A stretch of DNA of 64,000 bases, from NCBI GenBank assembly GCA_017442155.1, contig JAFSAU010000038.1, positions 57,685 through 121,684 on the forward strand. The letters run 5' to 3'. Positions 10,861-29,778 of this stretch are shown here, piece after piece (positions within the stretch are counted from its first letter, which is position 1; each line of letters starts with the position of its first letter). The DNA comes from Clostridia bacterium (GTDB lineage: Bacteria > Bacillota > Clostridia > UMGS1883 > UMGS1540). The translations under genes were made by a program, and so were the position numbers. Below the pieces are notes generated by a model. It was not told where the DNA came from and did not search any database. It saw only the letters and a program-made list of their open reading frames with translations.

Positions 10861-10866
10861 AAAGTA

Positions 10867-10905
10867 AGCCGTAATAAGTTTTTTGATTTATTACGGCTTT
10901 TCGTG
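10867..10905 (+). terminator. Rho-independent terminator
   Basis: AAGCCGTAATAA...TTATTACGGCTT + TT. Confidence 0.7.
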
Positions 10906-10914
10906 CTTTTTTGC

Positions 10915-10943
10915 TTGCAAAAAAAGAAGAAAAATGATATAAT
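10915..10943 (+). promoter_or_regulatory. Sigma-A promoter of the LicD-like gene
   Basis: TTGCAA-17 bp-(TGA)TATAAT. Confidence 0.7.
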
Positions 10944-10973
10944 ATATCGAATGGACAAAAGGAGGAAGAAGCA

Positions 10974-11708
10974 ATGCAGTGTGCAGTAAGCGATGTGCAG
11001 AACATACAGCTCGGAATTTTAAAAACATGCCGTGATATTTGTCAGCGGTATGGTCTTACGTATTTTCTGTTCGGAGATACACTACGCGGTGCAGTGCGCG
11101 GCGGCAAATTTCTGTCTGGAAGTACCGAGGCGGCATTGTTGATGCCGTCGGGGGATTTGAAAAACTTCTGTGCTTATTTTGCCAGAGAAGCACCCGAGGG
11201 GCTGTTTTTATCCTGCGTAGAGACGGAAAAGGAGTATCCGTATCTTACTGTCCGTGTCCGCAAGGATAATACGGTGGGGGAGGCAGAGCGGTTGCTTGGG
11301 CTTTCCGGCCATCACGGCATTTCGGTTTCCTTGTACCCCTATTACCCCATGGAGGTGGGGCGGCTGGCAAGACCCTGCACAAAGGCATATGTGTGGCTGG
11401 CAGAACGGCTTTTGGGGGCATCGCTTGTATCGTGCCTTGAGAAGCCGGTATTACTGGATACGATATTTGCTAAAATTCCGATAGAAAAGCGTCTGGCGTG
11501 GGCAGGAAAAGCTGTGCGGAAGCTGGAAAAAGGAAGTAAAAAGAGTATGCAGGTTTGTGTTCCGCTGGGCGGTGCTGTCTTTTTCTGGCGGGAAGCACTC
11601 GGCGAGGAAGAAACGTTTGTGGCTACGCTTTCCGGAGAGGAATTCCGGGTGCCGGACCGCAAAGAAGTGTTTTTGAACATGGCCGTGCCGGAGGGGAAAA
11701 GCGGCTGA
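10974..11708 (+). CDS. LicD-family-like protein with degenerate catalytic motifs
   Basis: Q..QL.IL....DIC..YGL.YFL.G.TL.GAVR.G.F matches the LicD N-terminus, but the usual WDDDID reads GSTEAA. Confidence 0.65.
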   Translation: MQCAVSDVQNIQLGILKTCRDICQRYGLTYFLFGDTLRGAVRGGKFLSGSTEAALLMPSGDLKNFCAYFAREAPEGLFLSCVETEKEYPYLTVRVRKDNTVGEAERLLGLSGHHGISVSLYPYYPMEVGRLARPCTKAYVWLAERLLGASLVSCLEKPVLLDTIFAKIPIEKRLAWAGKAVRKLEKGSKKSMQVCVPLGGAVFFWREALGEEETFVATLSGEEFRVPDRKEVFLNMAVPEGKSG

Positions 11709-11868
11709 CGGGAGAAATGCTATGGAAAACAGTTGCCGGGGAAGAGAAAAAGAATAAAAAACCTACCGGAAAGCAGTAGGAATTTCTACAAAAAAAGACA
11801 GACTTTTGCAAGATTTTTTGGCATTATGTCATTTTTGAAAATTTTTTGTTTTTTCTTGCAAAAAAGAC

Positions 11869-11897
11869 TTGATAAATTTTTAACAATGTGATATAAA
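11869..11897 (+). promoter_or_regulatory. Sigma-A promoter overlapped by a Rex operator
   Basis: TTGATAA-ATTT-TTAACAA (11869-11886) has one mismatch to the clostridial Rex palindrome TTGTTAA-N4-TTAACAA; -35 TTGATA, 17 bp, extended -10 TGaTATAAA. Confidence 0.7.
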
Positions 11898-11958
11898 TTA
11901 TATAGACCATAAAAGAAATAAAAAAGGCGAAAGCCAAGAAAAAGAAAGGGCGAAGGGT

Positions 11959-12906
11959 ATGAGCAAAATTACCATTATCGGTGCCGGCAGCGTCGGCTCC
12001 ACAATCGCGTACACGCTTTCTACGGAAAGCCTGGCCACAGAAATTGTGATGATTGACATCGACAAGAAAAAGGCCGGCGGAGAGGTTATGGATATTATGC
12101 AGGGCACCAGCTTCCGGGATGCCATTTCCATCACCAGCGGCGACTATGAGGACGCCAAGGGCTCTGATATTGTTATTATTACGTCGGGTGTTGCAAGAAA
12201 ACCGGGTCAGACGCGAATAGACCTGGCACAGACCAACGTAAATATTATCAAAGACATTGCACCGAAGATTGCAAAGGTGGCACCGGATGCGCTGTATATT
12301 ATTGTAAGTAACCCGGTGGATATTATCACCTATGTATTTATGAAGAAATCGGGCCTGCCGGAAAGACAGATTCTGGGCTCCGGTACACTGCTGGACACTT
12401 CCCGTCTGCGTCATGCACTTTCTGAGCATTTCGGCGTAGCACAGAAGAGCATTCATGCTTATATCTTCGGTGAGCACGGTGATACCTCGTTTGTACCCTG
12501 GTCCTGCGCCCGTATTTCTGCGGTAGGCGTGGAAGAATATACAAAGCTTGCAAGAGCATGCGGTGACAATCTCCCGCCCATGGACACAGAGATGATTGAA
12601 GAGCGTGTCCGCAGATCCGGCGGTATGATTATTGAGGGCAAGGGTGCTACCTTCTATGCCGTAGCCATGAGTGTATGCCGTCTGTGCAGCATCCTGGTTG
12701 CGCCGAAAACTTCTATTGTAACGGTTTCCACCATGATGCATGGCGAATACGACCTGGAGGATGTATGTCTCAGCACACTGACACGCATCGGTCCCGGCGG
12801 GGTAATCGGTAAGCTGCCCATTCCGCTCAATGAAGAGGAATATGCAAAGCTGCATAAGAGTGCAAATGCACTGAAGGACGTAATCAATCAGTTAGACCTT
12901 GCATAA
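11959..12906 (+). CDS. mdh: LDH/MDH-family dehydrogenase, probably malate dehydrogenase
   Basis: GAGSVG, NPVD, LDTSR, GEHGD; specificity loop GVARKPG has Arg (MDH) rather than Gln (LDH); heads an operon with fumarase and fumarate reductase. Confidence 0.75.
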   Translation: MSKITIIGAGSVGSTIAYTLSTESLATEIVMIDIDKKKAGGEVMDIMQGTSFRDAISITSGDYEDAKGSDIVIITSGVARKPGQTRIDLAQTNVNIIKDIAPKIAKVAPDALYIIVSNPVDIITYVFMKKSGLPERQILGSGTLLDTSRLRHALSEHFGVAQKSIHAYIFGEHGDTSFVPWSCARISAVGVEEYTKLARACGDNLPPMDTEMIEERVRRSGGMIIEGKGATFYAVAMSVCRLCSILVAPKTSIVTVSTMMHGEYDLEDVCLSTLTRIGPGGVIGKLPIPLNEEEYAKLHKSANALKDVINQLDLA

Positions 12907-12924
12907 ATTAAGGGGGCGAAAATA

Positions 12925-13713
12925 ATGAATTATAGCTATTACCCGGGTTGCACACTGCGCACGAAGGCAAAGGCGTTGGATGTCTATGCCAGACGGTCGG
13001 CAGAAGCACTGGGCTTTACGCTTGAAGAAATAGAGGACTGGCAGTGCTGCGGCGGTGTCTACCCTATGGGTAGTGACGAAATTGCCACAAAGCTTTCCTC
13101 TGTACGTGCACTTTGTGCCGCCAGGGAGAAGGGGCAGCCGGTGGTGACACTCTGTTCGGCTTGTCACCATGTTTTAAAGCGTGTAAACGACGATATGAAA
13201 AACGTTCCGAAAATCCGGGACGCGGCGAATGCTTATATGGGGGAAGAAGTACCCTATACAGGCGAAACTGAGGTGCTTCATTTCCTGGAGGTGCTTCGGG
13301 ATAAGGTGGGCTTTGATACGCTTGCCGGGAAAGTGAAAAACCCGTTGACGGGCAGAAAGATAGGAGCCTATTATGGTTGTCTCCTGCTCCGGCCCGGTCA
13401 GGTGATGGGCTTTGATGACCCGGAAAACCCGAAAATAATTGAGGACTTTATCCGGGCAATCGGTGCTGAGCCCGTAACCTATGGTATGCGGAACGAATGC
13501 TGCGGCGGCTATATTTCCCTCCGGGAGGGTGAGACAGCAAAGAAAATGAGTGACAGCATTATGGAAAATGCCGCGGACCAGGGCGCAGAAATGCTGGTGA
13601 CGGCATGTCCGCTCTGTATGTATAACTTAAATAAGAGTGAAAAATTACCGGTATATTACTTTACCGAGCTTCTGGCAGAAGCCCTCGGTGTAAAGGAGGC
13701 GGCAGAGGCATGA
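12925..13713 (+). CDS. hdrB: Heterodisulfide reductase subunit B-like
   Basis: Two CCG domains: YYPGC..CCGG..CSAC and YYGC..CCGG..CPLC. Confidence 0.9.
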   Translation: MNYSYYPGCTLRTKAKALDVYARRSAEALGFTLEEIEDWQCCGGVYPMGSDEIATKLSSVRALCAAREKGQPVVTLCSACHHVLKRVNDDMKNVPKIRDAANAYMGEEVPYTGETEVLHFLEVLRDKVGFDTLAGKVKNPLTGRKIGAYYGCLLLRPGQVMGFDDPENPKIIEDFIRAIGAEPVTYGMRNECCGGYISLREGETAKKMSDSIMENAADQGAEMLVTACPLCMYNLNKSEKLPVYYFTELLAEALGVKEAAEA

Positions 13714-14096
13714 AAAAGAATCAGACAGAACTGATACGTGAAATCAGCGGGGTCAATCCCTTAAAGTGCATGAAGTGCGGCAAGTGTTCTGCTTCCTGCC
13801 CGTCATATGACGAAATGGATATTAAACCCCATCAGTTTGTTTCGTATGTACTGCGTGACGATATAGAGGCACTGGCAAATTCCAAGTCTCTCTGGAAATG
13901 TCTTTCCTGCTTTGCGTGTGTGGAACGCTGTCCCAGAAATGTGGAGCCTGCAAAGCTTATCGATGCGGCCCGTCAGCTGGTAATCCGCCAGCGGGGAACG
14001 GAGGAAGGGCTTTCTCCGGACGAAATTCCGGCCCTTCTCGACGAAGATATGCCCCAGCAGCTTTTAGTCAGTGCATTCAGAAGATACAGGAGGTGA
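13710..14096 (+). CDS. hdrC: Heterodisulfide reductase subunit C-like
   Basis: CMKCGKCSASCP and CLSCFACVERCP; ATGA overlap with hdrB. Confidence 0.9.
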   Translation: MKKNQTELIREISGVNPLKCMKCGKCSASCPSYDEMDIKPHQFVSYVLRDDIEALANSKSLWKCLSCFACVERCPRNVEPAKLIDAARQLVIRQRGTEEGLSPDEIPALLDEDMPQQLLVSAFRRYRR

Positions 14097-14102
14097 TGAA
14101 AG

Positions 14103-16090
14103 GTGCAGAAAATCGGTGTATTTGTCTGTCATTGCGGCAGTAACATTGCGGCAACCGTAGATGTAAAACGAGTTGTGGAAGAAGTGAAGAAGGAGCAGGG
14201 CGTTGTACACGCAGAGGATTATCCCTATATGTGCTCCGAAGCCGGTCAGGCCCTGATTGCCGCGGCGATTAAAGAGAAAAATTTGGGCGGTATCGTGGTA
14301 TGCTCCTGTTCGCCCCGTATGCATGAAGCCACCTTCCGTAAGGCGGCAGAGCGTGCAGGTCTCAACCCTTATATGGTGGAGATTGCCAACATCCGCGAGC
14401 ATTGCTCCTGGATTCATAAGGATATGGAGGAGGCCACGGAAAAGGCGGTCATTCTGGCCCGTGCGGCCATTGCAAAGGTGCATCTTAACGCGCACCTGTA
14501 TCCCGGAGAGAGTGCCGTTACCAAACGTGCTCTCGTCATCGGCGGCGGTATCGCCGGGATTCAGACGGCACTGGATATTGCCGACGCCGGCTATGAAGTT
14601 GATATTGTAGAAAAAACGCCCAGCATCGGCGGCAGAATGAGTCAGCTTGACAAAACCTTCCCGACGCTGGACTGTTCGGCCTGTATTCTTACCCCCAAAA
14701 TGGTGGAAGCGGCCGCCCATGAAAATATCAATATCTTTACCTACAGTGAGGTGGAGAATGTTTCCGGCTTCGTTGGTGACTTTTCTGTGGACATCCGCAA
14801 GAAAGCCAGAAGCGTGGATATAAATAAATGTACCGGTTGCGGCCTTTGCCAGGAAAATGTCCTTCCAAGAAATCCCTGAGCGAATTTAACCGCGGCCTTA
14901 ACACGAGAAGTGCAATTTACACGCCTTTTGCCCAGGCTATACCGAATGTGCCTGTCATTGACCGGGAAAGCTGTATCAAGTTTAAAACCGGAAAATGCGG
15001 TCTTTGCGAAAAGGTCTGTCAGGCAGGGGCTATCGACTATACACAGCAGGATGAGATTATCACCCGCCAGTACGGTGCCATTGTGGTTGCCACCGGCTTT
15101 GATACAATCAAGCTGGACAAATACGGCGAGTATGCCTATAATGAAAGCCCGGATGTTATTACCTCTCTGGAGCTGGAGCGCGTGATGAACGCCGCAGGCC
15201 CCACCAAGGGACATCTGGAACGCCTTTCTGACGGAAAGCACCCGAAGGAAATCGTGTTTATCCAGTGTGTAGGCAGCCGCTGCGATGACCACAGAGGAAA
15301 GCCCTACTGCTCGAAAATCTGTTGTATGTACACGGCGAAACATGCCATGCTCATCCGTGATAAGTACCCGGATGTGAACGTGACTGTCTTTTATATTGAC
15401 GTGCGTACTCCCGGTAAGAATTTTGACGAGTTCTATCGCCGCGCGGTGGAGGAATACGGTGTAAATTATATTAAGGGTCAGGTGGGCAAGGTTGTGCCGC
15501 AGGCCGACGGCAGTCTCCTGGTACAGGGGTCAGACCTTCTCGACGGCAAGCAGATTAAAATGAAAGCGGACATGGTAGTGCTGGCCACGGCCATTGAGCC
15601 GGACCCGTCTGTACGAAAGATTGCTACTATGCTGACTGCCAGCATTGATACAAATAACTTCCTGACGGAAGCCCATCCGAAGCTTCGTCCGGTGGAATCT
15701 CCCACAGCAGGTGTGTTCCTCTCCGGCGTGTGCCAGGGACCGAAGGATATTCCGGAAACCGTTTCCCAGGCGGGGGCGGCGGCCGTGAAGGTCATCGGTT
15801 TGCTTGCAAAGGATAAGCTGACGACCAATCCGTGCACAGCCCGGTCTGATACGCTTCTCTGTAACGGCTGTAGCGTGTGCCAGAATGTATGTCCCTACGG
15901 GGCTATCAGCTATGAAGAAAAAGAAGTCAATGATCACGGCATCCGTGAAACCCGCCGCGTAGCGGTCGTAAACGGTGCTCTGTGTCAGGGCTGCGGTGCC
16001 TGTACCGTTGCCTGCCCGTCGGGTGCTATGGACCTGCAGGGCTTCTCAAACAGACAAATTATTGCGGAGGTGGATGCGATATGTCGGTAG
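14103..16090 (+). CDS. hdrA: Heterodisulfide reductase subunit A, split by a frameshift at ~14857 (assembly error or pseudogene)
   Basis: ORFs 14103..14879 (IGVFVCHCG, CSCSP, GGGIAG, FPTLDC) and 14828..16090 (QCVGSR, CSKICC, GPKDIP, two ferredoxin motifs); one extra A in the run 14854-14857 restores CTGCGLCQEKCP and a 662-aa frame. Confidence 0.9.
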
Positions 16091-16518
16091 CAACAGAATT
16101 TAAACCTAAAATCGTTGCCTTTTGCTGTAACTGGTGCAGCTATGCCGGGGCGGACCTGGCCGGCTCAAGCCGCCTGGCTTACCCGGCGGATGTGAAAATT
16201 ATCCGTGTGCCCTGCTCCTGCAGAGTCAACCCCATGTTTATTCTCCGCGCCTTTGAAAAGGGTGCAGACGGGGTAATCCTCTGTGGCTGTCATCCCGGTG
16301 ACTGCCATTATTCCACGGGCAACTTTTATGCAAGAAGAAGAATGACCCTTCTGTTCTCCCTGCTTGACTATCTGGGCGTAGAGGAAGGCCGTACCCGGGT
16401 GGAATGGGTATCGGCGGCAGAGGGCGTTAAGTTCTCGCAGACGATGAACGAATTTGTTGAAAAAATCCGTTCCCTCGGTGAAAATGTAAGATTGGGGGAT
16501 TTACGATGCAAGAATTAG
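16081..16518 (+). CDS. flxD: MvhD/FlxD [2Fe-2S] subunit
   Basis: FCCNWCSY, RVPCS, GADGV..CGCHPGDCHY, WVSAAEG; RBS GGAGG. Confidence 0.9.
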   Translation: MSVATEFKPKIVAFCCNWCSYAGADLAGSSRLAYPADVKIIRVPCSCRVNPMFILRAFEKGADGVILCGCHPGDCHYSTGNFYARRRMTLLFSLLDYLGVEEGRTRVEWVSAAEGVKFSQTMNEFVEKIRSLGENVRLGDLRCKN

Positions 16519-17480
16519 TAAACCGCGCAAAAGCACTGCTGGCAGACGGTACCGTACAGCGGGTGCTCGGCTGGAAAATGGGCGACCTTGCCTATAATCC
16601 GGAGCCGGCCTTCTTTGAAAACGAGGAAGCCCTGTCTGATTTTGTGTACAACAGCTTTTGCGGTGCAAATCTCAGTAAATATATGATTGAAGCCTCCAAA
16701 AAGGAGGGCAAAACCCTGGTGTTCTTAAAGCCCTGCGACACCTACAGCTTTAACCAGCTTTTAAAGGAACATCGCATTCTGCGCGAAAAGGCTTATATTA
16801 TCGGTGTAGGCTGCACGGGAAAAATCAGCGGCGAAAGGATTAAGGAGGCAGGTATCCGCGGCATTATCGCAGTGGAAGGGGCCGATGCATTTGCGCCCGC
16901 TGAAACCCTGCAGGTAAAGACCCTGTACGGCGACCGCGAAATCGCGTACAAGGATGCTATGCTGGAGCGTTGCCATGTCTGCAAGGGTAAGGAACACAAA
17001 ATCTATGATGAAATTATCGGCGAAAGCCGCGATACGGCAGACAGCGACCGGATGGAAAAGGTGCGCGAGATAGAAGCAATGTCTCCCGAAGAAAAGTTTG
17101 CCTTCTTCCAGAATGAGCTGTCCCGGTGCATCCGCTGTAATGCCTGCCGGAACGTATGCCCTGCCTGCAGTTGCCGCAAGTGCGTGTTCGACAGCACAAA
17201 GTTCGACAGTGCCCAGAAGGCAAATGTGGATTCTTTTGAGGAAAAGATGTTCCATGTTATCCGTGCTTTCCATGTGGCGGGCAGATGTACTGACTGCGGT
17301 GAGTGCAGTCGCGTGTGTCCCCAGAACATTCCGCTCCACCTCTTTAACCGGAAGCTGATTTCTGATATAAACGAATTTTATGGTGAATACCAGGCCGGTG
17401 AGGACGATACAACAGTCGGACCGCTGACAGCATTCACCACGGACGATATCGAGCCTTCTGACGCTCGGGAAAGGGGCTAA
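16506..17480 (+). CDS. flxC: FlxC-like iron-sulfur subunit
   Basis: KPCD, CIRCNACRNVCPACSC, AGRCTDCGECSRVCP; position after flxD. Confidence 0.75.
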   Translation: MQELVNRAKALLADGTVQRVLGWKMGDLAYNPEPAFFENEEALSDFVYNSFCGANLSKYMIEASKKEGKTLVFLKPCDTYSFNQLLKEHRILREKAYIIGVGCTGKISGERIKEAGIRGIIAVEGADAFAPAETLQVKTLYGDREIAYKDAMLERCHVCKGKEHKIYDEIIGESRDTADSDRMEKVREIEAMSPEEKFAFFQNELSRCIRCNACRNVCPACSCRKCVFDSTKFDSAQKANVDSFEEKMFHVIRAFHVAGRCTDCGECSRVCPQNIPLHLFNRKLISDINEFYGEYQAGEDDTTVGPLTAFTTDDIEPSDARERG

Positions 17481-17483
17481 GGC

Positions 17484-18512
17484 ATGAAAAAGATAGAAAA
17501 AGTAAATCTCCCTGCCCTCTTTGCGGCAATTTCGGAGGAAGCCAGCCTCGTTCTGCCGGTGAAAAACGGCGGCATGACAAACTTCGCCCTCTGGAGCGAG
17601 GATGCAGACGTGGACCTGGAAACGCTGAAAACCGTAAAATCTGCCAAAGACGCCTTTTTTCCGCAGAGTGAAACGCTGTACAGCGTCCACCGGGAAGAGG
17701 GAAAGCTGAAAATCACACGGGGCGAGCTGATGGACGAGGATTTCGTATTGTTCGGTGTCCGCGCCTGTGATGCCCGCGGCTTTGAAGTCCTGGACAAGGT
17801 TTTCCTGTCCGACCCCGTGGATTCCTTCTATAAAGCAAGACGGGAACACGGCACCGTGGTGGCCTTGGCCTGCCATGCGCCGGAGGAAAGCTGCTTCTGC
17901 ACCACCTTCGGCATTGACAGCGCAGAGCCGGGCGCAGACGTGGATACCTGGATGGTTGGCGAGGCCCTGTACTGGAAAGCCAATACCGAAAAGGGTGAAG
18001 CACTCACAAACCGTCTTTCTGCACTTTTGTCTGATGCAGACGAAAAAGCAGTGGAAGAGGAAAAAGCAAATATCCGCGGCATTATGGAAAAGCTTCCTTA
18101 TGCCTCTCTTACCACAGAGGGCTGGGGCGGCGATGCACAGAAAGAAAAATTCGAGTCTCCTCTCTGGGAAGAGCTGTATAAGCCGTGCCTTGCCTGCGGT
18201 ACCTGTACCTTCGTGTGTCCCACCTGCCAGTGCTACGATATTAAGGACTATAGCACCGGCGAAGGCGTGCAGCGGTATCGCTGCTGGGATTCCTGCATGT
18301 ATTCTGATTTTACCATGATGGCCCATGGCAACAACCGCACCAGCCAGATGCAGCGGTATCGGCAGCGGTTTATGCATAAGCTGGTATACTATCCCGCAAA
18401 TTACGGCGGCACATTCTCCTGCGTAGGCTGTGGCCGATGCGTGGAAAAATGCCCGACGGGACTGAATATAGTGAAGGTTATGAAGGCCTTTGCGGAAAAG
18501 GAGGGCAAGTAA
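17484..18512 (+). CDS. flxB: FlxB/AsrA-like iron-sulfur subunit
   Basis: GVRACD, CFC, CLACGTCTFVCPTCQC, RCWDSC, CVGCGRCVEKCP. Confidence 0.8.
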   Translation: MKKIEKVNLPALFAAISEEASLVLPVKNGGMTNFALWSEDADVDLETLKTVKSAKDAFFPQSETLYSVHREEGKLKITRGELMDEDFVLFGVRACDARGFEVLDKVFLSDPVDSFYKARREHGTVVALACHAPEESCFCTTFGIDSAEPGADVDTWMVGEALYWKANTEKGEALTNRLSALLSDADEKAVEEEKANIRGIMEKLPYASLTTEGWGGDAQKEKFESPLWEELYKPCLACGTCTFVCPTCQCYDIKDYSTGEGVQRYRCWDSCMYSDFTMMAHGNNRTSQMQRYRQRFMHKLVYYPANYGGTFSCVGCGRCVEKCPTGLNIVKVMKAFAEKEGK

Positions 18513-18513
18513 A

Positions 18514-19368
18514 ATGTGTGAATGTAACTGCCATGAAAATTATGTAGAAGACACCCTGATTCCTAAGGTGGGCGTCATTACCGACATCCGTCAGGAAACA
18601 CCGGATGTCAAAACCTTCCGTGTCAATGCGCCGGAGGGCGGCAAGCTTTTTGAACATATGCCCGGACAGTGCGCCATGCTTTGTGCACCCGGCGTCAGCG
18701 AGGCGATGTTCTCTATCACGTCCTCTCCTACGAATAAGGAGTTTCAGGAGTTCAGCATTAAAAAGTGCGGCGAGCTTACTGACTATCTCCACAGCCTGTC
18801 TGTGGGCGATGAGATTACTGTACGCGGTCCCTATGGAAACAATTTCCCGGTGGAAACAGAACTGAAGGGAAAAAATCTTCTGTTCATCGCCGGCGGTATC
18901 GGTCTTGCACCGCTCCGCTCCGTAATCAACTATGTACTGGACAACCGCGGGAATTACGGCACTGTGGACATTCTCTACGGTTCCAGAAGTGCGGATGACC
19001 TGGTACAGCTGAAGGAAATCCGGGAGGTCTGGGAAAAGGCAGAGGGTGTGAATGTATATCTCACCATCGACCGGGAACAGGAAGGCTGGGACGGCCATGT
19101 GGGCTTCGTACCGGCGTATCTCAAAGAGCTGAATTTTGCTACGGATAAGACAGCACTCATCTGCGGTCCCCCGATTATGATTAAATTCGTACTTGCGGCA
19201 CTGACGGAAATGGGATTTTCCAAAGAGCAGGTGTACACCACACTGGAACTTCGCATGAAGTGCGGCGTCGGTAAGTGCGGCAGATGTAACATCGGTTCCA
19301 AATATGTCTGCAAGGACGGTCCGGTGTTCCGCTGTGATGAAATAGATGAAATGCCAAACGAGTATTAA
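18514..19368 (+). CDS. flxA: FlxA/AsrB-like FAD/NAD(H)-binding [2Fe-2S] subunit
   Basis: PGQ, RGPYGN, AGGIGLAP, CGPPIM, MKCGVGKCGRC..C.DGPV. Confidence 0.85.
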   Translation: MCECNCHENYVEDTLIPKVGVITDIRQETPDVKTFRVNAPEGGKLFEHMPGQCAMLCAPGVSEAMFSITSSPTNKEFQEFSIKKCGELTDYLHSLSVGDEITVRGPYGNNFPVETELKGKNLLFIAGGIGLAPLRSVINYVLDNRGNYGTVDILYGSRSADDLVQLKEIREVWEKAEGVNVYLTIDREQEGWDGHVGFVPAYLKELNFATDKTALICGPPIMIKFVLAALTEMGFSKEQVYTTLELRMKCGVGKCGRCNIGSKYVCKDGPVFRCDEIDEMPNEY

Positions 19369-19386
19369 GAGAGGAGCGAAAGTACG

Positions 19387-20061
19387 ATGGAGAACATGGT
19401 AAACGTATATTTTTTCGGTAAAAAATACAGCGTCCCCGGCGATCTTACGATTATGACAGCTATGGAATACGCCGGTTATACCCTCAAAAGAGGATGCGGC
19501 TGCCGACATGGCTTCTGCGGGGCCTGTGCGACGATTTACCGCATCAAGGGCAAAAATGAACTGAAAACCTGTCTGGCCTGCCAGACCCAGGTGCAGGAGG
19601 GCATGTATATTGCCAGCATTCCGTTTTTCCCGACGGACAAAAGAACGTATGAAATCAACGAGATTCGTCCTGACCAGCGGGTTATGATGGAGCTGTACCC
19701 CGAAATTTACAGCTGTATCGGCTGTAACGCCTGTACAAAGGCCTGTACACAGAGCCTGAATGTTATGCAGTACATTGCATACGCACAGCGCGGCGAATTT
19801 GAAAAGTGTGCAGAGGAATCCTTCGACTGTGTAAGCTGCGGCTGCTGCAGCGTGCGCTGTCCCGCAGGGATTTCCCATCCGATGGTCGGCCTTCTGGCCC
19901 GCCGTCTTGTGGGTAAATATATTGCCCCGGAAACCGAGCATCTTAAAAACCGGGTGGAGGAAATCAACAAGGGTGCATATGACGAACTTATCGAGCAGGT
20001 TATGCAAAAGCCCATCACGGAAATGCAGGAACTTTACAATACAAGAGAGATTGAGAAATAA
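19387..20061 (+). CDS. Soluble fumarate reductase iron-sulfur subunit (FrdB/SdhB-like)
   Basis: N-terminal [2Fe-2S] CRHGFCGAC..C, then CIGCNACTKAC and CVSCGCCSVRCP; precedes the flavoprotein. Confidence 0.75.
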   Translation: MENMVNVYFFGKKYSVPGDLTIMTAMEYAGYTLKRGCGCRHGFCGACATIYRIKGKNELKTCLACQTQVQEGMYIASIPFFPTDKRTYEINEIRPDQRVMMELYPEIYSCIGCNACTKACTQSLNVMQYIAYAQRGEFEKCAEESFDCVSCGCCSVRCPAGISHPMVGLLARRLVGKYIAPETEHLKNRVEEINKGAYDELIEQVMQKPITEMQELYNTREIEK

Positions 20062-20076
20062 GGAGGGAGAAAGGTT

Positions 20077-21675
20077 ATGTTTACAGCAGAAATGCTTGAA
20101 TCTATCAAAAAGGTAGAAGCGACCCGTGCGGAACGTATGAGCAAGGAGCCGAGAAGAATGACGGCAGACGAAAAGGAAGCCCTTCTCAAAGCCTATCATC
20201 CCGACTACCGTGAGGACGGCTTTGCAACCATTAAAGTGGGTCCCAACAAGGGGCAGAAAGCACCCCTGGAGCTGGGACAGCTGCTCCATTCCAACAGCCG
20301 AATTCTGAATGAAAATATTGACCTTACAAAGGTTGACTATGACGTGGATGTGCTTGTCATCGGCGGCGGCGGTGCAGGTTCCTCAGCAGCGATTGAAGCC
20401 CATGAAGCGGGCGCAAACGTCATGATTGTCACAAAGCTTCGTATCGGTGATGCCAACACCATGATGGCAGAGGGCGGTATCCAGGCGGCAGACAAGGAGA
20501 ACGATTCTCCCGTACAGCATTACCTGGATGCGTTCGGCGGCGGCCACTTTGCCGCACGTCCCGAGCTTCTGCGCCGTCTTGTTATGGAAGCCCCGGATGC
20601 AATCCGCTGGCTGAATGACCTCGGCGTTATGTTCGATAAGGACGAGGACGGCAGAATGGTTACCACCCATGGCGGCGGCACCTCCAGAAAGAGAATGCAC
20701 GCCTGTAAGGACTATTCCGGTGCAGAAATCATGCGTACACTTCGTGATGAAGTGATTAACCGCGGCATTCCTGTAGTAGAATTTACTTCTGCTGTTGAAC
20801 TTATCAAAGATGATAAGGGTCAGGTTGCCGGTGCAGTCCTGATGAATATGGAAACGGAGGATTACCTCGTAGCCCGTGCCAAAACCGTTATTATCGCAAC
20901 GGGCGGCGCAGGCAGACTCCACTATCAGAATTTCCCGACCTCCAATCACTACGGCGCAACCGCTGACGGTCTTGTACTCGGTTACCGCGCAGGCGCACCG
21001 CTCCTCTATCAGGATACGATTCAGTACCATCCCACGGGCGTTGCGTACCCGTCCCAGATTTTCGGCGCACTCGTTACGGAAAAGGTTCGTTCTCTCGGTG
21101 CAATGCTGGTTAATAAAGACGGTGAAGCGTATGCCCATCCGCTGGAAACCCGTGACGTTTCCGCATCTGCGATTATTCGCGAATGTGCAAACGGCAAGGG
21201 CGTAGAAACACCACTCGGCAGCGGCGTATGGCTCGACACCCCCATGATTGAAATCATTGGCGGCGAAGGCACCATTGAAAAGCGTATCCCCGCAATGCTC
21301 CGTATGTACATGAACTACGGCATTGATATGCGTAAGGTTCCGATTCTGGTATATCCCACATTGCATTACCAGAACGGCGGTCTTGAAATCGGTGGCGAGG
21401 GTTATACAAAGGCAATCCCGAACCTTTTAGTAGCCGGCGAAGCCGTTGGCGGTATCCACGGCAGAAACCGTCTGATGGGGAACTCCCTTCTCGATATCAT
21501 CGTATTCGGCAGAAATGCAGGTAAGGCCGCATCTGCCCGTGCAAAGGAAGTTACGCTTGGCAATATGAATCTTGACCATGTAAAGGCATATGCAGAAGAA
21601 CTTAAGGCAGCGGACGCCGAATTTGATGGTGTATCGCCCTTGCTTCTCCCCAAGTATGCCCGTCACGAAAGATAA
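20077..21675 (+). CDS. Fumarate reductase flavoprotein (FrdA/TfrA-like, soluble)
   Basis: GGGGAG, AEGG, ATGG.G, QYHPTG, TEKVR, ETRD, HYQNGG, HGRNRLMGNSL catalytic set. Confidence 0.85.
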   Translation: MFTAEMLESIKKVEATRAERMSKEPRRMTADEKEALLKAYHPDYREDGFATIKVGPNKGQKAPLELGQLLHSNSRILNENIDLTKVDYDVDVLVIGGGGAGSSAAIEAHEAGANVMIVTKLRIGDANTMMAEGGIQAADKENDSPVQHYLDAFGGGHFAARPELLRRLVMEAPDAIRWLNDLGVMFDKDEDGRMVTTHGGGTSRKRMHACKDYSGAEIMRTLRDEVINRGIPVVEFTSAVELIKDDKGQVAGAVLMNMETEDYLVARAKTVIIATGGAGRLHYQNFPTSNHYGATADGLVLGYRAGAPLLYQDTIQYHPTGVAYPSQIFGALVTEKVRSLGAMLVNKDGEAYAHPLETRDVSASAIIRECANGKGVETPLGSGVWLDTPMIEIIGGEGTIEKRIPAMLRMYMNYGIDMRKVPILVYPTLHYQNGGLEIGGEGYTKAIPNLLVAGEAVGGIHGRNRLMGNSLLDIIVFGRNAGKAASARAKEVTLGNMNLDHVKAYAEELKAADAEFDGVSPLLLPKYARHER

Positions 21676-21762
21676 AATAGTAAAAAACTGTAGGGCGAAA
21701 GTGCTGAAAATGCGCTTTCGCCCGAAGGTGTGTAAAAGTGTAGTGAAAGGAAAGAATAGAAA

Positions 21763-23028
21763 ATGGAATTGTTTGGCGGCGTAATCCCCGTAACCGGGAT
21801 TACCTTTCTGATGTTCTGTGTGTTTGCAGTTTTGTTCGTGGGCTATGCCCTTGGCCGCATTACGATAAAGGGCGTATCCCTTGGTGATGCAGGCGTGTTT
21901 GTCATTGCGCTTCTCTTTGGCGCACTCTTCTTTGCACCGCTGGAAAGCCAGCTGGTGATAAAGGGAGAGAGCGAAGCGGTGCATTTTGTGGAAAAAGCAC
22001 TGGAAATTATTGAAACTTTAGGGCTTATCCTCTTTGTTACCTCTGTTGGTTTTATTGCCGGACCGAAATTTTTCGGCAATATGAAAAAGAACTTTAAGTC
22101 TTATGTGCTTTTAGGTCTTGTGGTTATTCTGGCAGGCGGCCTTTCTGCCATTACCTGTATTTACATGGGCAGAGGGATTGGCTTTGGCTCTTCCATTGAA
22201 ACCTCTGAAGGTTTTACGGCTATGATTGTCGGACTTCTTTCCGGCTCGCTTACCTCCACACCCGCTTTTTCTGCGGCGAAGGCTACGGTGGCAGCGGAAT
22301 ATACCAGCCTTGTTTCTGTAGGGCACGGTATTGCGTACATATTCGGCGTTATCGGCGTTGTTCTGTTTGTACAGCTGATTCCGAAGCTTACACGCGCAGA
22401 TATGGCGGCAGAACGCGCAAAACTCACAAGCGCAAATGAAGGGCAAACGAAGAAGAAAACCGTAGGAAAGCTTCTCTCTCTGGACGGTCATGGTTTTGCG
22501 GCATTTTGCCTTGCAGCAGTGCTGGGTATGATTATCGGCAAAATTAAAATTCCCCTTTCCGGTGCAGGTCTTAGCGGCACATGCTTCTCCCTGACCACAA
22601 CAGGCGGCTGTCTGCTTACGTCTCTGCTTTTAGGTCACTTCGGCAGAATCGGCAAGCTTAACATGATGCCCGAGCAGTCCACTTTGAAGCTGTTCCGTGA
22701 GCTGGGTCTTGTTCTGTTCCTCGTAGGCGCAGGTATCCCCGGCGGTGCTGACTTTGTTGCAAACTTTGACCCGATGTACTTTGTATATGGTATGATTATG
22801 ACGATTATTCCTATGGTTATCGGCTTCCTGTTTGCAAAATATGTGCTGAAATTAAGCCTTCTCAATAATCTTGGTTCCATTACGGGCGGTATGACAAGTA
22901 CACCGGCCTTAGGAACGCTTATCAATACTGCAGGCACGGAGGATGTTGCTGCCGCATACGCCGCGACGTATCCCATTGCCCTCATTGCAGTTGTACTGGT
23001 TTCCCAGTTCCTGATTATCTTATTCTAA
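21763..23028 (+). CDS. AAE (AspT/YidE/YbjL) family transporter, candidate succinate exporter
   Basis: Duplicated membrane domains with GSLTSTPA and GGMTSTPALG, LGL.LF, YAATYP; no central TrkA-C domains. Confidence 0.8.
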   Translation: MELFGGVIPVTGITFLMFCVFAVLFVGYALGRITIKGVSLGDAGVFVIALLFGALFFAPLESQLVIKGESEAVHFVEKALEIIETLGLILFVTSVGFIAGPKFFGNMKKNFKSYVLLGLVVILAGGLSAITCIYMGRGIGFGSSIETSEGFTAMIVGLLSGSLTSTPAFSAAKATVAAEYTSLVSVGHGIAYIFGVIGVVLFVQLIPKLTRADMAAERAKLTSANEGQTKKKTVGKLLSLDGHGFAAFCLAAVLGMIIGKIKIPLSGAGLSGTCFSLTTTGGCLLTSLLLGHFGRIGKLNMMPEQSTLKLFRELGLVLFLVGAGIPGGADFVANFDPMYFVYGMIMTIIPMVIGFLFAKYVLKLSLLNNLGSITGGMTSTPALGTLINTAGTEDVAAAYAATYPIALIAVVLVSQFLIILF

Positions 23029-23040
23029 AGGAGTAAAACA

Positions 23041-23883
23041 ATGCGTGAAATTAATGTAAGTCTTGTGACGGACACAGTGGAAAAGCTGTGCATAGATGCA
23101 AACAACCACTTGCCGGAGGACGTGAAGTGCGCAATCAAAAACTGCCGTGCCTGTGAGGACGGCGAGATTGCACAAGGCGTGCTCGACAATATAATCGAAA
23201 ATTTCGAGATTGCAGACAATGAGAACGTACCGATTTGCCAGGATACGGGTATGGCCTGTGTATTCCTTGAAATCGGACAGGATGTACACTTTGTGGGCGG
23301 CGATTTGACTGATGCTGTCAACGAAGGTGTTCGTCGCGGCTACGATAAAGGATACTTACGTAAATCCGTCGTGGCTGACCCCGTGCGCCGCGGTAACACC
23401 GGCGACAACACCCCGGCGATGATTTATACGGAAATCGTACCGGGCGAAAATGTAAAAATTACTGTAGGCCCGAAGGGCTTCGGCAGTGAAAACATGAGCC
23501 GCATCTGCATGTTCAAGCCGTCCCACGGCATTGAAGGCATTAAGAACTTCATTCTGGAAACCGTGGAAATTGCAGGCCCCAATCCCTGCCCGCCCATGGT
23601 TGTGGGCGTCGGCATCGGCGGCACCTTTGATAAGGCGGCACTCCTTGCCAAAAAGGCACTGATGCGTCCTATCGATTCTGAAAACCCCGACCCCTATTAT
23701 GCAGACCTCGAAAAGGAAATGCTGGAGAAAATCAACGAGCTTGGCATCGGTCCCCAGGGCTTTGGCGGCAAAACGACTGCCATCGGTCTGAATATCGAAA
23801 CCATGCCTACCCATATTGCCGGTATGCCCTGTGCAATTAACATTAACTGCCACGTAACAAGACATAAGTCGGAGGTACTGTAA
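23041..23883 (+). CDS. fumA: Class I fumarate hydratase, alpha subunit
   Basis: PICQDTG, GYLRKS, KGFGSEN, GPNPCPP, CH..RH. Confidence 0.9.
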   Translation: MREINVSLVTDTVEKLCIDANNHLPEDVKCAIKNCRACEDGEIAQGVLDNIIENFEIADNENVPICQDTGMACVFLEIGQDVHFVGGDLTDAVNEGVRRGYDKGYLRKSVVADPVRRGNTGDNTPAMIYTEIVPGENVKITVGPKGFGSENMSRICMFKPSHGIEGIKNFILETVEIAGPNPCPPMVVGVGIGGTFDKAALLAKKALMRPIDSENPDPYYADLEKEMLEKINELGIGPQGFGGKTTAIGLNIETMPTHIAGMPCAININCHVTRHKSEVL

Positions 23884-23984
23884 AACGCATGGCGTTTTAC
23901 AGGGCAGACAAAAAGAACGAAAAAACCATCTGCATGACAGATGGGGTTTGAATATTTTTCTTTTCAAGAAAGGAAGTGGATGAA

Positions 23985-24542
23985 ATGGCTAAGAAGATTA
24001 CATTACCTTTAACAGAAAAACTGGCGAAAACCTTAAAAGCAGGGGATGAAGTACTTCTTACAGGTACAATTTATACATCCCGTGACGCAGGGCACAAGAG
24101 AATGTGCGAAACGCTAGCGAGGGGAGAGGAACTGCCCTTTGACCCGAAGGATGCAACCATTTATTATGTAGGTCCTACCCCTGCAAAGCCGGGGCAGGTC
24201 ATCGGCTCTGCCGGCCCTACCACCAGCGGTCGTATGGATGCCTACGCACCGACCATGATGAGCGTGGGAGCACGCGGAATGATTGGTAAAGGCGCACGTC
24301 TCCCCGAGGTAATTGATGCTATGAAAAAGTACAGCGGTGTTTACTTCGGTGCCATTGGCGGTGCCGGTGCGCTTCTTGCAAAATGTATTAAAAGTGCGGA
24401 GCTTATCGCCTACGAGGATTTGGGGGCAGAAGCACTCCGTAAACTGTATGTGGAGGATATGCCGCTGGTGGTCATTATCGACAGCGAAGGAAACAACCTC
24501 TACGAAAAAGGCAGAGAAGCGTATCTTGCTGGGCGAAAATAA
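23985..24542 (+). CDS. fumB: Class I fumarate hydratase, beta subunit
   Basis: RDAGHKR, YYVGP, GPTTSGRMD, IGKG, DLGAEA. Confidence 0.9.
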   Translation: MAKKITLPLTEKLAKTLKAGDEVLLTGTIYTSRDAGHKRMCETLARGEELPFDPKDATIYYVGPTPAKPGQVIGSAGPTTSGRMDAYAPTMMSVGARGMIGKGARLPEVIDAMKKYSGVYFGAIGGAGALLAKCIKSAELIAYEDLGAEALRKLYVEDMPLVVIIDSEGNNLYEKGREAYLAGRK

Positions 24543-24583
24543 TAAAAATTTCAAAAAAAAATTAACATTTTTTTGCAAAAGTA

Positions 24584-24612
24584 TTGAAATTGTGCCAAAA
24601 TAGTGGTAGAAT
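24584..24612 (+). promoter_or_regulatory. Sigma-A promoter of hup
   Basis: TTGAAA-17 bp-(TGG)TAGAAT. Confidence 0.6.
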
Positions 24613-24645
24613 AGACATAAGTTAAGGTTTGGAAGGAGTGAAAAC

Positions 24646-24918
24646 ATGAATAAGGCAGAACTCATCGCGGCAATCGCTGCAAATGCAGAGATTTCCAAAA
24701 AGGATGCGGACAAGGCCCTGGCAGCAGCTCTTGACACGATTACAGGCGTGCTGAAGGATGGAGGAAAGGTGCAGCTTATCGGCTTTGGTACTTTTGAGAC
24801 ACGGCAGCGTGCAGCCCGTAAGGGTAAGAATCCGCAGACAGGCGCAGAAGTTATGATTCCTGCAGCAAGCGTTCCGGTATTTAAGGCCGGTAAAGCTCTG
24901 AAGGAAACCGTAAAATAA
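24646..24918 (+). CDS. hup: DNA-binding protein HU
   Basis: [32 protein letters not shown]. Confidence 0.97.
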
Positions 24919-24924
24919 GAAATG

Positions 24925-24976
24925 CACAGAAAAGAGACTGCAGAGGGCTTATTTCCTTGGCAGTTTCTTTTTGTGT
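24925..24976 (+). terminator. Terminator after hup
   Basis: AAAAGAGACTGC...GCAGTTTCTTTT. Confidence 0.65.
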
Positions 24977-25130
24977 AAAACCGACTCCGAGATAAAAGTT
25001 TTTTCGGAACGCATTTTGAACAAAACGACCGTATGTTTGCTTTGTTTATTGTATATTTTTAACACTGTACAAGGTTGCAGTTTTATGTTACAATATAGAT
25101 GTTTGAATCGTAGAAAAGGGAAGTGAAACT

Positions 25131-25979
25131 ATGTACAAAATTGTACGGAAGCGGGCACTGAACCCCACTGTAACCCAGATGGAAATTGACGCGCCGCGTG
25201 TGGCGGCAAAGGCGAAGCCCGGCCAGTTCATTATTTTGCGTGTGGACGTGGACGGGGAGCGGATTCCGCTGACGGTGGCGGGAACGAATCCGGCAGAAGG
25301 AACAGTAAAGATTATTTTTCAGACGGTGGGCGGCACCACGGCGCGCTTGCAGCAGAAAAACGAGGGAGAATATATTGAAGACTTCGTAGGGCCTCTGGGC
25401 CGGCCTACCCATACGGAAGGCATTAAAAAGGTATGCGTTGTGGGTGGCGGTGTTGGCTGCGCCATTGCCATGCCGGTGGCGGAGGAATTTCACCGCCTTG
25501 GAGCAGAGGTCACCAGCATTATCGGCTTCCGGGATAAGGACCTTTTGATTTTGGAAGAGGAATTTAAAGCCTGCTCCGACCGGCTGATTGTTATGACAGA
25601 TGATGGCTCCTACGGAAGGCACGGCAATGTGACAGTGCCGCTTGGAGAAATGCTGGAGGCGGGTGAGACATTTGATATGATTATCACCATTGGTCCGCTT
25701 ATTATGATGAAGTTTGTGACGCTTGCGGCAAAGCCCTATGGTGTGCCGGTTACCGCGTCTATGAATCCGATTATGATTGACGGCACGGGCATGTGCGGCG
25801 GCTGCCGTCTCACCTTAAATCAGGATGGAAAAAAGGTGACTAAATTTGCCTGTGTGGATGGCCCGGAATTCAATGCCTATGAAATTGACTTTGATGAGGC
25901 GATGTCCCGCGGTAGAATGTATACTGATTTTGAGCGGCACGCCTATGAGGAAGCCTGCAATTTGTTTAAGAAAGCATAA
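25131..25979 (+). CDS. nfnA: NADH-dependent reduced ferredoxin:NADP+ oxidoreductase, small subunit
   Basis: KPGQFIILR, GERIPLT, GPLG.P, MIDGTGMCGGCR, ACVDGPEF. Confidence 0.92.
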   Translation: MYKIVRKRALNPTVTQMEIDAPRVAAKAKPGQFIILRVDVDGERIPLTVAGTNPAEGTVKIIFQTVGGTTARLQQKNEGEYIEDFVGPLGRPTHTEGIKKVCVVGGGVGCAIAMPVAEEFHRLGAEVTSIIGFRDKDLLILEEEFKACSDRLIVMTDDGSYGRHGNVTVPLGEMLEAGETFDMIITIGPLIMMKFVTLAAKPYGVPVTASMNPIMIDGTGMCGGCRLTLNQDGKKVTKFACVDGPEFNAYEIDFDEAMSRGRMYTDFERHAYEEACNLFKKA

Positions 25980-25993
25980 GGGAGGGAACGAAA

Positions 25994-27403: not shown

Positions 27404-27422
27404 TAAATAAGGAGAGAAAAGC

Positions 27423-27908
27423 ATGAACGAACAGTTTGATTTTTCGGTTGTGGACAAAATTCTGGAAGTGCACGAAAAGCAGGAACAGGCTATTATTGCG
27501 ATTTTGCAGGAAATTCAGGAGCACTACCACTATCTGCCGAGAGAAATCTTCCCCTACCTGGCCGAGGAGCTGGGGATGAGCGAGGCTCGCATTTTCAGTG
27601 TTGCCACGTTCTATGAGAACTTTTCCCTGGAGCCGAAGGGCAAGTATGTGATTAAAATTTGCGACGGTACGGCTTGCCACGTTCGCAAATCCATTCCGAT
27701 TCTGGAGCGGCTCCGCAGTGAGCTGGGACTCAGCGAGAAAAAGAAAACAACGGATGATCTGAATTTTACCGTGGAAACGGTATCCTGCCTCGGTGCCTGC
27801 GGTCTGGCACCTGTACTTACGGTGAATGATGTAGTACATTCTGCCATGACACCGGATAAGGCTTCCGAACTTTTAAAATCCCTGAAGGAGGAAATCGCCA
27901 ATGCTTAA
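27423..27908 (+). CDS. hydC: [FeFe]-hydrogenase NuoE-like subunit
   Basis: VATFY, CDGTACH, CLGACGLAP. Confidence 0.9.
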   Translation: MNEQFDFSVVDKILEVHEKQEQAIIAILQEIQEHYHYLPREIFPYLAEELGMSEARIFSVATFYENFSLEPKGKYVIKICDGTACHVRKSIPILERLRSELGLSEKKKTTDDLNFTVETVSCLGACGLAPVLTVNDVVHSAMTPDKASELLKSLKEEIANA

Positions 27909-29775: not shown

Positions 29776-29778
29776 GAA

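Follow-up and report, generated by a model that had tools for sequence, protein, structure and literature searches.

A thirteen-gene row from malate dehydrogenase to fumarase

We analyzed a window of 64,000 nucleotides from an uncultured Clostridia bacterium (GTDB lineage Bacteria; Bacillota; Clostridia; UMGS1883; UMGS1540; assembly GCA_017442155.1, contig JAFSAU010000038.1, positions 57,685 to 121,684 of the forward strand), and its main subject is a putative operon at 11959-24542, where the genes of a HdrABC-FlxABCD electron-transfer complex stand next to those of a soluble fumarate reductase, FrdAB. A sequence-only reading had described 13 co-oriented and tightly spaced genes at this place and a succinate pathway wired to electron bifurcation. 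All 13 genes were recovered on the forward strand with Pfam and NCBIfam matches that fit their labels, in the order mdh, hdrB-C-A, flxD-C-B-A, frdB-A, AAE-family transporter and fumA-B (Table 1), and the intergenic spacing ranged from a 4-base overlap to 92 bases. The likely true starts of flxD and flxA were read from the DNA, each with a ribosome-binding site upstream. The source genome, which occurs in animal gut and faeces metagenomes, is a 2.43-Mb assembly of 51 contigs that is 92% complete, and absences from it are given below as not found.

Table 1. Genes of the putative operon, with positions in the window and the sequence features on which each label is based.
Gene	Position	Strand	Length and features
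mdh	11959..12906	+	315 residues; Ldh_1_N and Ldh_1_C; substrate loop VARKPGQTR
hdrB	12925..13713	+	262 residues; two CCG domains (Pfam); all 10 Cys of two non-cubane [4Fe-4S] motifs
hdrC	13710..14096	+	128 residues; ferredoxin-like with two [4Fe-4S]; Fer4_8 and HdrC models; 8 cluster Cys invariant
hdrA	14103..16090	+	FAD and Fe-S subunit; HdrA2 profile covered at positions 1-251 and 253-640 by the two pieces
flxD	16081..16518	+	MvhD-like [2Fe-2S] protein; FlpD domain, E 1.6e-54; likely ATG 16081 behind GGAGGTGG ribosome-binding site, overlapping the hdrA stop
flxC	16506..17480	+	324 residues; Fe-S protein; C-terminal dicluster domain, Fer4_8 and Fer4_9 at residues 204-275; colinear in relatives
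flxB	17484..18512	+	342 residues; Fe-S protein, AsrA- or sulfhydrogenase beta-like; Fer4_22; ShyB, HydB and AsrA models below cut-offs
flxA	18514..19368	+	FAD, NAD(P)H and 2Fe-2S; FAD_binding_6, NAD_binding_1, DHODB_Fe-S_bind; likely ATG 18514 behind AGGAGGG ribosome-binding site
frdB-like small subunit	19387..20061	+	224 residues; Fer2_4 and Fer4_7; one 2Fe-2S motif and two full four-Cys [4Fe-4S] motifs
frdA-like flavoprotein	20077..21675	+	532 residues; FAD_binding_2 from residue 91
AAE-family transporter	21763..23028	+	421 residues; two Asp-Al_Ex domains; YidE/YbjL duplication domain
fumA	23041..23883	+	class I Fe-S fumarate hydratase alpha; Fumerase, E 2e-119; NF004885 above cut-off
fumB	23976..24542	+	class I Fe-S fumarate hydratase beta; Fumerase_C; NF005310 above cut-off

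The genes of a FlxABCD-HdrABC complex were found side by side, with a complete HdrA, a HdrB with two CCG motifs, a HdrC with two [4Fe-4S] motifs, and FlxA-D alongside. The 10 cluster cysteines of HdrB were invariant in 33 sequences, and its profile matched solved HdrB over the full length (E 1e-43 to 1e-39). The hdrA gene appears in the record as two open reading frames (ORFs), 14103-14879 and 14828-16090, separated by a -1 frame change in a run of four A at 14854-14857, inside a cysteine-rich cluster motif. This split is an assembly error and the gene is intact, because an extra A behind position 14853 was present in the independent Logan contigs of 4/4 runs (from three studies; one may represent the source sample) and because the two halves lie in one frame in relatives L022 and L023, the two that were checked by coordinates; the halves were adjacent in 12/12 relatives first examined, and one 8-kb Logan contig differed from the window solely by the A that is missing in hdrA. 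A programmed frameshift or a selenocysteine was ruled out, the break being a frame change in a run of four A that independent contigs read as five. The genome record carries, at this site, at least one homopolymer assembly error. In a distant genome, a full-length HdrA orthologue (G427:C64:17720-19696, 59% identity) contains one in-frame TGA, which may encode selenocysteine. The intact HdrA orthologue L022:3335-5320 (92-94% identity) aligned over residues 3-660 with residues 5-649 of 5odc_A (E 1e-200), the solved HdrA of methanogen HdrABC, which is a bifurcating enzyme. By this homology, the product of the operon hdrA is of that type.

The fumarate reductase subunits came without a membrane anchor gene in the operon, as had been read from the sequence, and the anchor families were not searched genome-wide. 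The name FrdB fitted in part: the protein has one 2Fe-2S and two [4Fe-4S] motifs, with cluster cysteines invariant among the aligned sequences, but it is divergent, and its match to solved SdhB/FrdB-type chains was weak and marginal, close to none. FrdA, the single FrdA-like gene product found in the genome, scored below the cut-off of every NCBIfam equivalog; the best model was TfrA (NF004900), at 336.4 bits where the cut-off is 718. At its N-terminus, FrdA carries a conserved, cysteine-free extension of about 88 residues, and its alignment to Escherichia coli SdhA stops near SdhA residue 460 of 588. The counterparts of SdhA H242, T254, E255, R286, H354 and R399, the catalytic set for fumarate and succinate, were kept and were invariant in 13 sequences. 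Asn127 aligned with His45 of E. coli SdhA, the site of covalent flavin adenine dinucleotide (FAD), and with the corresponding His of Mycobacterium smegmatis Sdh2; it was Asn in 13/13 sequences. FrdA lacks the conserved His through which complex II holds its FAD covalently, suggesting that the cofactor is bound non-covalently here. Non-covalent FAD in flavoproteins of the complex II type goes with fumarate reduction and not with succinate oxidation.

This residue bears on the possibility that the system runs in reverse, oxidizing succinate to fumarate by confurcation, in which electrons from succinate and reduced ferredoxin would pass to NADH, as in a syntrophic succinate or propionate oxidizer. 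Hdr-type bifurcating enzymes are reversible in principle, and all the enzymes of the operon are reversible on paper. Against such a direction stand the Asn found in all 13 aligned FrdA, by the rule just given, the fact that methylmalonyl-CoA mutase was not found in the source genome, and the nature of the carriers, which are gut fermenters with a GTP-type phosphoenolpyruvate carboxykinase (PEPCK); we consider the reverse operation highly improbable. We prefer the forward direction, from fumarate to succinate.

The first gene of the row had been labelled as an MDH-type dehydrogenase, and the label stood as regards the substrate loop, not as regards the family. The protein falls in the clade of the L-lactate dehydrogenases (LDHs): it passed the NCBIfam L-LDH cut-off (331.5 vs 303.55) and barely that of a malate dehydrogenase subfamily (283.5 vs 283), and its top 60 solved relatives were all LDHs. 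The loop, however, has an Arg where solved LDHs have a Gln (VARKPGQTR aligned with AAQKPGETR and VPQKPGETR), and this Arg was present in 44/44 operon-linked Mdh homologues whose sequence extends over the loop. At LDH residue 102, an Arg in the place of Gln gives specificity for oxaloacetate, and the LDH-clade enzyme is, judged by this rule, a malate dehydrogenase. The AAE-family transporter is a candidate succinate exporter or C4-dicarboxylate exchanger. The domain content of the set, thus, agreed with the succession from oxaloacetate to malate, fumarate, succinate and export that the sequence-only reading had drawn, and we hold with moderate confidence that the row codes for a cytoplasmic pathway that leads from oxaloacetate to succinate without a quinone.

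Conservation of the nine-gene core

A pattern scan with one genome per species matched at least 599 stretches; the confirmed ones number 595, which gives at least 595 genomes, each representing one species. The best 80 of these matches were from gut Clostridia (Faecousia, Oscillospiraceae, Acutalibacteraceae and Lachnospiraceae), and the isolates among them included Blautia faecis, B. schinkii, Fusicatenibacter faecihominis, Sporofaciens musculi, Porcincola intestinalis and Ohessyouella blattaphilus. Together with 12 loci from relatives, these best 80 matches made up a set of 92 closer loci. A synteny survey had been suggested along with the first description of the operon, and here hdrB-hdrC-hdrA-flxD-flxC-flxB-flxA-frdB-frdA stood in identical order in all 67 loci with at least 7.4 kb 5' of frdA, while the other 25 of the 92 were cut by contig ends and fall outside this count. 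The nine-gene arrangement is far beyond chance. A complete HdrA with both ferredoxin domains was kept at 80-94% identity across the 92 loci. The accessory genes were found less regularly: 75 of these loci had fumA, 71 had fumB, 49 had the AAE gene and 45 had mdh.

These neighbors were used to weigh whether FrdAB acts on another substrate, i.e., another enoate, or whether Flx-Hdr and FrdAB are mere neighbors and not one complex. Such a view would be consistent with the FrdA scores, which lie under all equivalog cut-offs, and with the distant members (49-57% identity), whose neighbors are PrpD-family, AtuA, aconitase or cytochrome b561 genes and which may use other acids. However, fumA and mdh accompany the operon at the frequencies just given, the dicarboxylate catalytic residues are invariant, and the linkage to Hdr-Flx was complete (67/67) in the close subfamily, and we regard both variants of this explanation as very unlikely. 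Fumarate, reduced by a FrdAB that is joined to Hdr-Flx, is the substrate that we favor.

Outside the closer loci, 43/400 other genomes of an even phylum sample contained a FrdA homologue of full length (E 1e-150 or better), and 20 distant loci were fetched around FrdA homologues of 49-71% identity. Six of them contained the full Hdr and Flx set, rearranged in three (L113, L114, L132, L119, L121 and L126), two had several HdrA-like genes and MvhD without FlxA/B (L117 and L125), and two had HdrB and HdrC only (L118 and L120). Only the close FrdA subfamily, that of the protein in this window, is always linked to Hdr-Flx. In the last two loci, FrdA, FrdB, HdrB and HdrC form a four-gene block with no HdrA or Flx gene nearby (L118:6616-10182 and L120:9182-12751), which resembles a 'split TfrAB'; both genomes encode a full HdrA elsewhere. 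In two more (L127:8153-9142 and L129:8127-9113), a gene for a 4Fe-4S dicluster protein fused to a cytochrome b561 membrane domain lies 3' of FrdAB homologues of 53-54% identity and adjoins PrpD/PrpF, aconitase and citrate-synthase-like genes. This form may be a membrane-linked variant, perhaps for another acid.

Proposed coupling of fumarate reduction to ferredoxin

The genome surroundings of the operon were then considered. DsrC, said to be missing from the window, was not found in the whole source genome either, and no CCG protein other than the operon HdrB was found there. The description of the pathway as quinone-free agreed with a search for UbiA-family prenyltransferases, which gave 0/9 in the genomes of the genus, all nine of which carry FrdA, and was positive in 14/14 reference genomes. 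As a quinone marker across the phylum, UbiA was dropped, since 283/401 genomes were positive and the family is too generic. RnfD was found in 0/9 genomes of the genus; a NiFe hydrogenase (including Ech) and an ATP-type PEPCK were not found in the source genome. Present were a GTP-type PEPCK on the same contig as the operon, a PYC/OadA-type carboxylase domain and four [FeFe] hydrogenase genes. Directly 3' of the operon, at 25131-31467 on the forward strand, lie nfnA, nfnB, a NuoE-like gene, a NuoF-like gene and hydA, the latter being one of the four [FeFe] hydrogenase genes and encoding 2Fe-2S and NADH-G domains, of the HydABC type. Operon and downstream genes together make up 20 kb of soluble redox modules in a row. 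It is rare for nfnA and the NuoF-like gene to adjoin the operon, as seen in 2/92 related loci.

We propose the reaction 2 NADH + fumarate + Fd(ox) -> 2 NAD+ + succinate + Fd(red), where Fd is ferredoxin, with HdrB wired directly to FrdB, a reading to which we assign an even chance. Oxaloacetate would probably come from the GTP-type PEPCK and would be converted by Mdh to malate, by FumAB to fumarate and by FrdAB to succinate, which the AAE transporter would export. NADH would be oxidized at FlxA, and the electrons would travel via FlxB, FlxC and FlxD to the FAD of HdrA, where each pair would be split. The low-potential electron would exit through the HdrA ferredoxin domains to a ferredoxin, and the high-potential electron would pass from HdrC to HdrB with its non-cubane clusters, on through the three FrdB clusters to the FAD that FrdA is predicted to bind non-covalently and, finally, to fumarate. 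No free thiol or disulfide carrier would take part, and HdrB would serve as an electron relay and dock, like its counterpart inside the fused methanogen TfrB. The overall reaction would amount to about -40 kJ/mol, according to our own arithmetic from textbook potentials.

The direct contact was weighed against a thiol shuttle, in which HdrABC-FlxABCD would bifurcate to ferredoxin and a soluble disulfide, either a small molecule or a protein, and FrdAB would oxidize the thiol, like methanogen TfrAB. HdrB keeps both complete CCG motifs, the disulfide-cleaving site of known Hdr enzymes, the best NCBIfam model of FrdA is that of a thiol:fumarate reductase, and the model proposed for Desulfovibrio Flx-Hdr employs DsrC; all of these would suit a shuttle. 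A DsrC-like carrier is also allowed by the model for the tubeworm symbiont Ca. Endoriftia (PMC11636981). A second thiol-oxidizing site would, however, be needed on the Frd side, and neither FrdA nor FrdB has a CCG domain. Moreover, the TfrA and TfrB scores were far under their cut-offs, and DsrC was not found in the genome, in which the biosynthesis genes of coenzymes M and B were not searched for. We regard the shuttle as quite unlikely. Direct wiring of Hdr to Frd is favored because the sole CCG protein of the genome is the operon HdrB, leaving nothing to re-oxidize a free thiol. It is also favored because FrdB, HdrC and HdrB match successive segments of a single fused TfrB (NF004898): residues 12-80 of FrdB cover profile positions 19-87, HdrC covers 120-219 and HdrB 265-485, with scores of 33-43 against a cut-off of 385. 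In addition, HdrBC is the minimal partner beside FrdAB in the two distant loci L118 and L120.

It could be argued that no bifurcation takes place at all, and that the proteins form a plain soluble NADH:fumarate reductase, or that ferredoxin is a second donor rather than the acceptor. Bifurcation is predicted here from homology, relatives of FrdAB operate without any Hdr, and with no Rnf or Ech found the reduced ferredoxin would not be convertible to an ion gradient in this organism, all of which would be in line with this argument. On the other hand, nine genes would be needless for a simple NADH:fumarate reductase, the complete HdrA is conserved with both its ferredoxin domains in the 92 closer loci, and the genes next door are of ferredoxin-consuming HydABC and Nfn types. 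We judge the absence of bifurcation to be unlikely, and return to the ferredoxin-reducing reaction proposed above. Since no Rnf or Ech was found, the reduced ferredoxin would be usable by soluble enzymes only, and it would most likely be spent by the [FeFe] hydrogenases, the HydABC-type set and NfnAB being located just downstream. With a HydABC-type hydrogenase, the net reaction would be 3 NADH + fumarate -> succinate + 2 H2. Each fumarate reduced would lift two NADH electrons to the level of ferredoxin and, together with a third NADH, these would exit as H2 through HydABC, so that more NADH would be disposed of as H2 per fumarate; the system would be a redox valve and not an ion pump. More tentatively, and with rather less confidence than in the reaction itself, we suggest a nine-subunit soluble HdrABC-FlxABCD-FrdAB in which the HdrB clusters would be a pure wire onto FrdB that never touches a disulfide, acting as a redox valve in a genus without Rnf, Ech or quinone. 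If this is true, it would be the first Hdr with a carbon-carbon double bond as its high-potential substrate.

A number of observations weigh against this coupling. Half of the 20 distant loci (49-63% identity; L115, L116, L122, L123, L124 and L127-L131) had no Hdr gene in the fetched stretch, two of them having short flanks, and among them were all seven distant loci at 57% identity or less. Their neighbors included a Fer4 and cytochrome b561 protein with PrpD/PrpF or aconitase, a FMN_bind and Fer4 protein with succinyl-CoA synthetase, and pyruvate carboxylase. One of these genomes, 99% complete, has no HdrA at all. Because such Hdr-less loci and an HdrA-less genome exist, FrdB can draw on other donors, and FrdAB, as judged from its gene neighborhoods, appears to be a portable soluble module that more than one kind of donor can supply with electrons. 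Hdr-less relatives also carry the N-terminal extension of FrdA, which was for this reason ruled out as an Hdr-specific dock. No fusion of FrdB to HdrB, or to HdrC, was found among 24 longer FrdB relatives. About 28 of the 43 FrdA-positive genomes of the phylum sample have some UbiA-family gene (hand count), and the term quinone-free is limited to this genus. No RNA run was found among the sequencing runs that contain hdrA. In the literature, only proposals were found, with no purification, assay or genetic test of a Flx-Hdr-linked fumarate reductase, subscription journals and the preprint server being outside the search, and the phrase 'bifurcating fumarate reductase' occurred in no paper of the searched literature.

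The 24 longer FrdB relatives were FlxA-FrdB read-throughs, internally deleted pieces or proteins with foreign N-termini, mostly from single-member metagenome clusters. Since flxA, frdB and frdA are adjacent, FlxA-FrdB fusions do not discriminate between the wiring models. Among proteins P0005-P0028, from public protein sets, apparent fusions of FlxA with FrdB and of FrdB with FrdA were numerous, their junctions varied and internal deletions occurred; these are probably artefacts of gene calling or assembly.

Related systems and other features of the window

A linkage of flx, hdr and frd genes in Pseudoclostridium thermosuccinogenes, named in the sequence-only reading, proved to be real and is described in PMC7282089. 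There, a 'succinate operon' (CDQ83_RS03315-03365) comprises a fumarate hydratase, a seven-gene Flx-Hdr, a two-gene fumarate reductase and a putative transporter; it is co-regulated and goes up about 4-fold under CO2 limitation, and Flx-Hdr is assumed to connect the fumarate reductase with the reduction of ferredoxin, 'as proposed previously' (PMC7282089). The paper cites a 2019 preprint (Koendjbiharie and van Kranenburg) that proposes ferredoxin-coupled fumarate reduction, and Ramos et al. 2015. By gene description, both operons have an anchor-less Frd, a Flx-Hdr set, a fumarase and a transporter, both organisms have a GTP-dependent PEPCK, and the reaction proposed is likewise from NADH to fumarate plus ferredoxin. 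Unlike the operon as described for P. thermosuccinogenes, that of the window includes mdh, has a two-subunit fumarase at its far end and has a recognizable AAE transporter. The hosts differ too, as the window comes from an uncultured mesophilic gut member of the Oscillospirales in which no Rnf or Ech was found, whereas P. thermosuccinogenes has both (PMC7282089). The operon type is one already proposed in print (2019-2020), and it is very widespread in gut bacteria. The window adds the corrected hdrA, the Arg-type Mdh, the Asn-for-His FrdA, the genus-wide absence of UbiA-family and Rnf genes from the searches, the argument from a single CCG protein, and cultured carriers. A further paper (PMC9044749) reports the silencing of malic enzyme only.

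With FlxABCD-HdrABC of Desulfovibrio vulgaris the window shares the protein types, namely a NAD(P)H/FAD subunit, two Fe-S subunits, a MvhD-like protein, HdrA, HdrB and HdrC. Ramos et al. are said to have proposed, in 2015, the DsrC disulfide as the high-potential acceptor of that complex. In contrast, the window comes from a genome in which DsrC was not found, has FrdAB in the same operon, and its order, hdrBCA-flxDCBA, mirrors the published name order. Methanogen TfrAB is similar in being a soluble fumarate reductase with no anchor and in having its Fe-S subunit linked to a CCG (HdrB-like) module; it is different in that TfrB is one fused protein fed by the thiols of coenzymes M and B, CoM-SH and CoB-SH, while the window has no such fused protein and its separate genes would be fed by HdrA/Flx. 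Compared with E. coli FrdABCD/SdhABCD and Wolinella FrdCAB, the flavoprotein is homologous and shares the catalytic His, Arg, Thr and Glu. Unlike classical complex II, the operon has no anchor gene, its genus has no detected UbiA-family gene, and the proteins have Asn for the covalent-FAD His and a second four-Cys motif in FrdB, at the place where complex II carries a 3Fe-4S site.

In the tubeworm symbiont Ca. Endoriftia, Hdr-Flx genes occur with tfrAB and korABCD in a gene cluster of the reverse tricarboxylic acid cycle, and a similar model has been put forward (PMC11636981). That system belongs to an autotrophic Gammaproteobacterium running the reverse cycle, has extra Kor subunits, and is likewise presented as a model without enzyme assays (PMC11636981).

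If the proposed reaction is true, succinate formation in many gut Clostridia would be coupled to ferredoxin reduction, the balances of ATP, H2 and redox in models of gut and rumen fermentation would change, and Hdr-type bifurcation, which has few high-potential acceptors, would gain a carbon substrate among them. A genus without Rnf and UbiA-family genes narrows the possible uses of reduced ferredoxin, and the presence of the module in cultured, tractable isolates makes a six-year-old hypothesis directly testable.

The remaining features lie around the operon or opposite its genes. A scan of 10800-30700 for promoters and terminators gave counts not above those of shuffled sequences (22 vs 18.0±3.9 and 28 vs 22.4±4.8, respectively) and no usable operon boundaries, and there were 0 Rfam matches across the whole window. 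In the AT-rich stretch 11800-11900, 5' of mdh, we observed an imperfect inverted repeat (CTTTTGCAAGA ... TCTTGCAAAAAAG) and a promoter-like TTGATA-17-TATAAA site, the latter not listed by the promoter scan; this stretch may be a regulator site. Just 5' of the operon, a 244-residue ORF at 10974-11708 on the forward strand matched neither Pfam nor NCBIfam models, and none of the related loci contained a homologue. Long ORFs were also found on the reverse strand, at 16761-18377 (538 residues, opposite flxC-flxB), 18478-20289 (603 residues, opposite flxA-frdB) and 27817-29895 (692 residues, opposite the NuoF-like gene and with no NCBIfam match). These three look like shadow ORFs of the sense genes.

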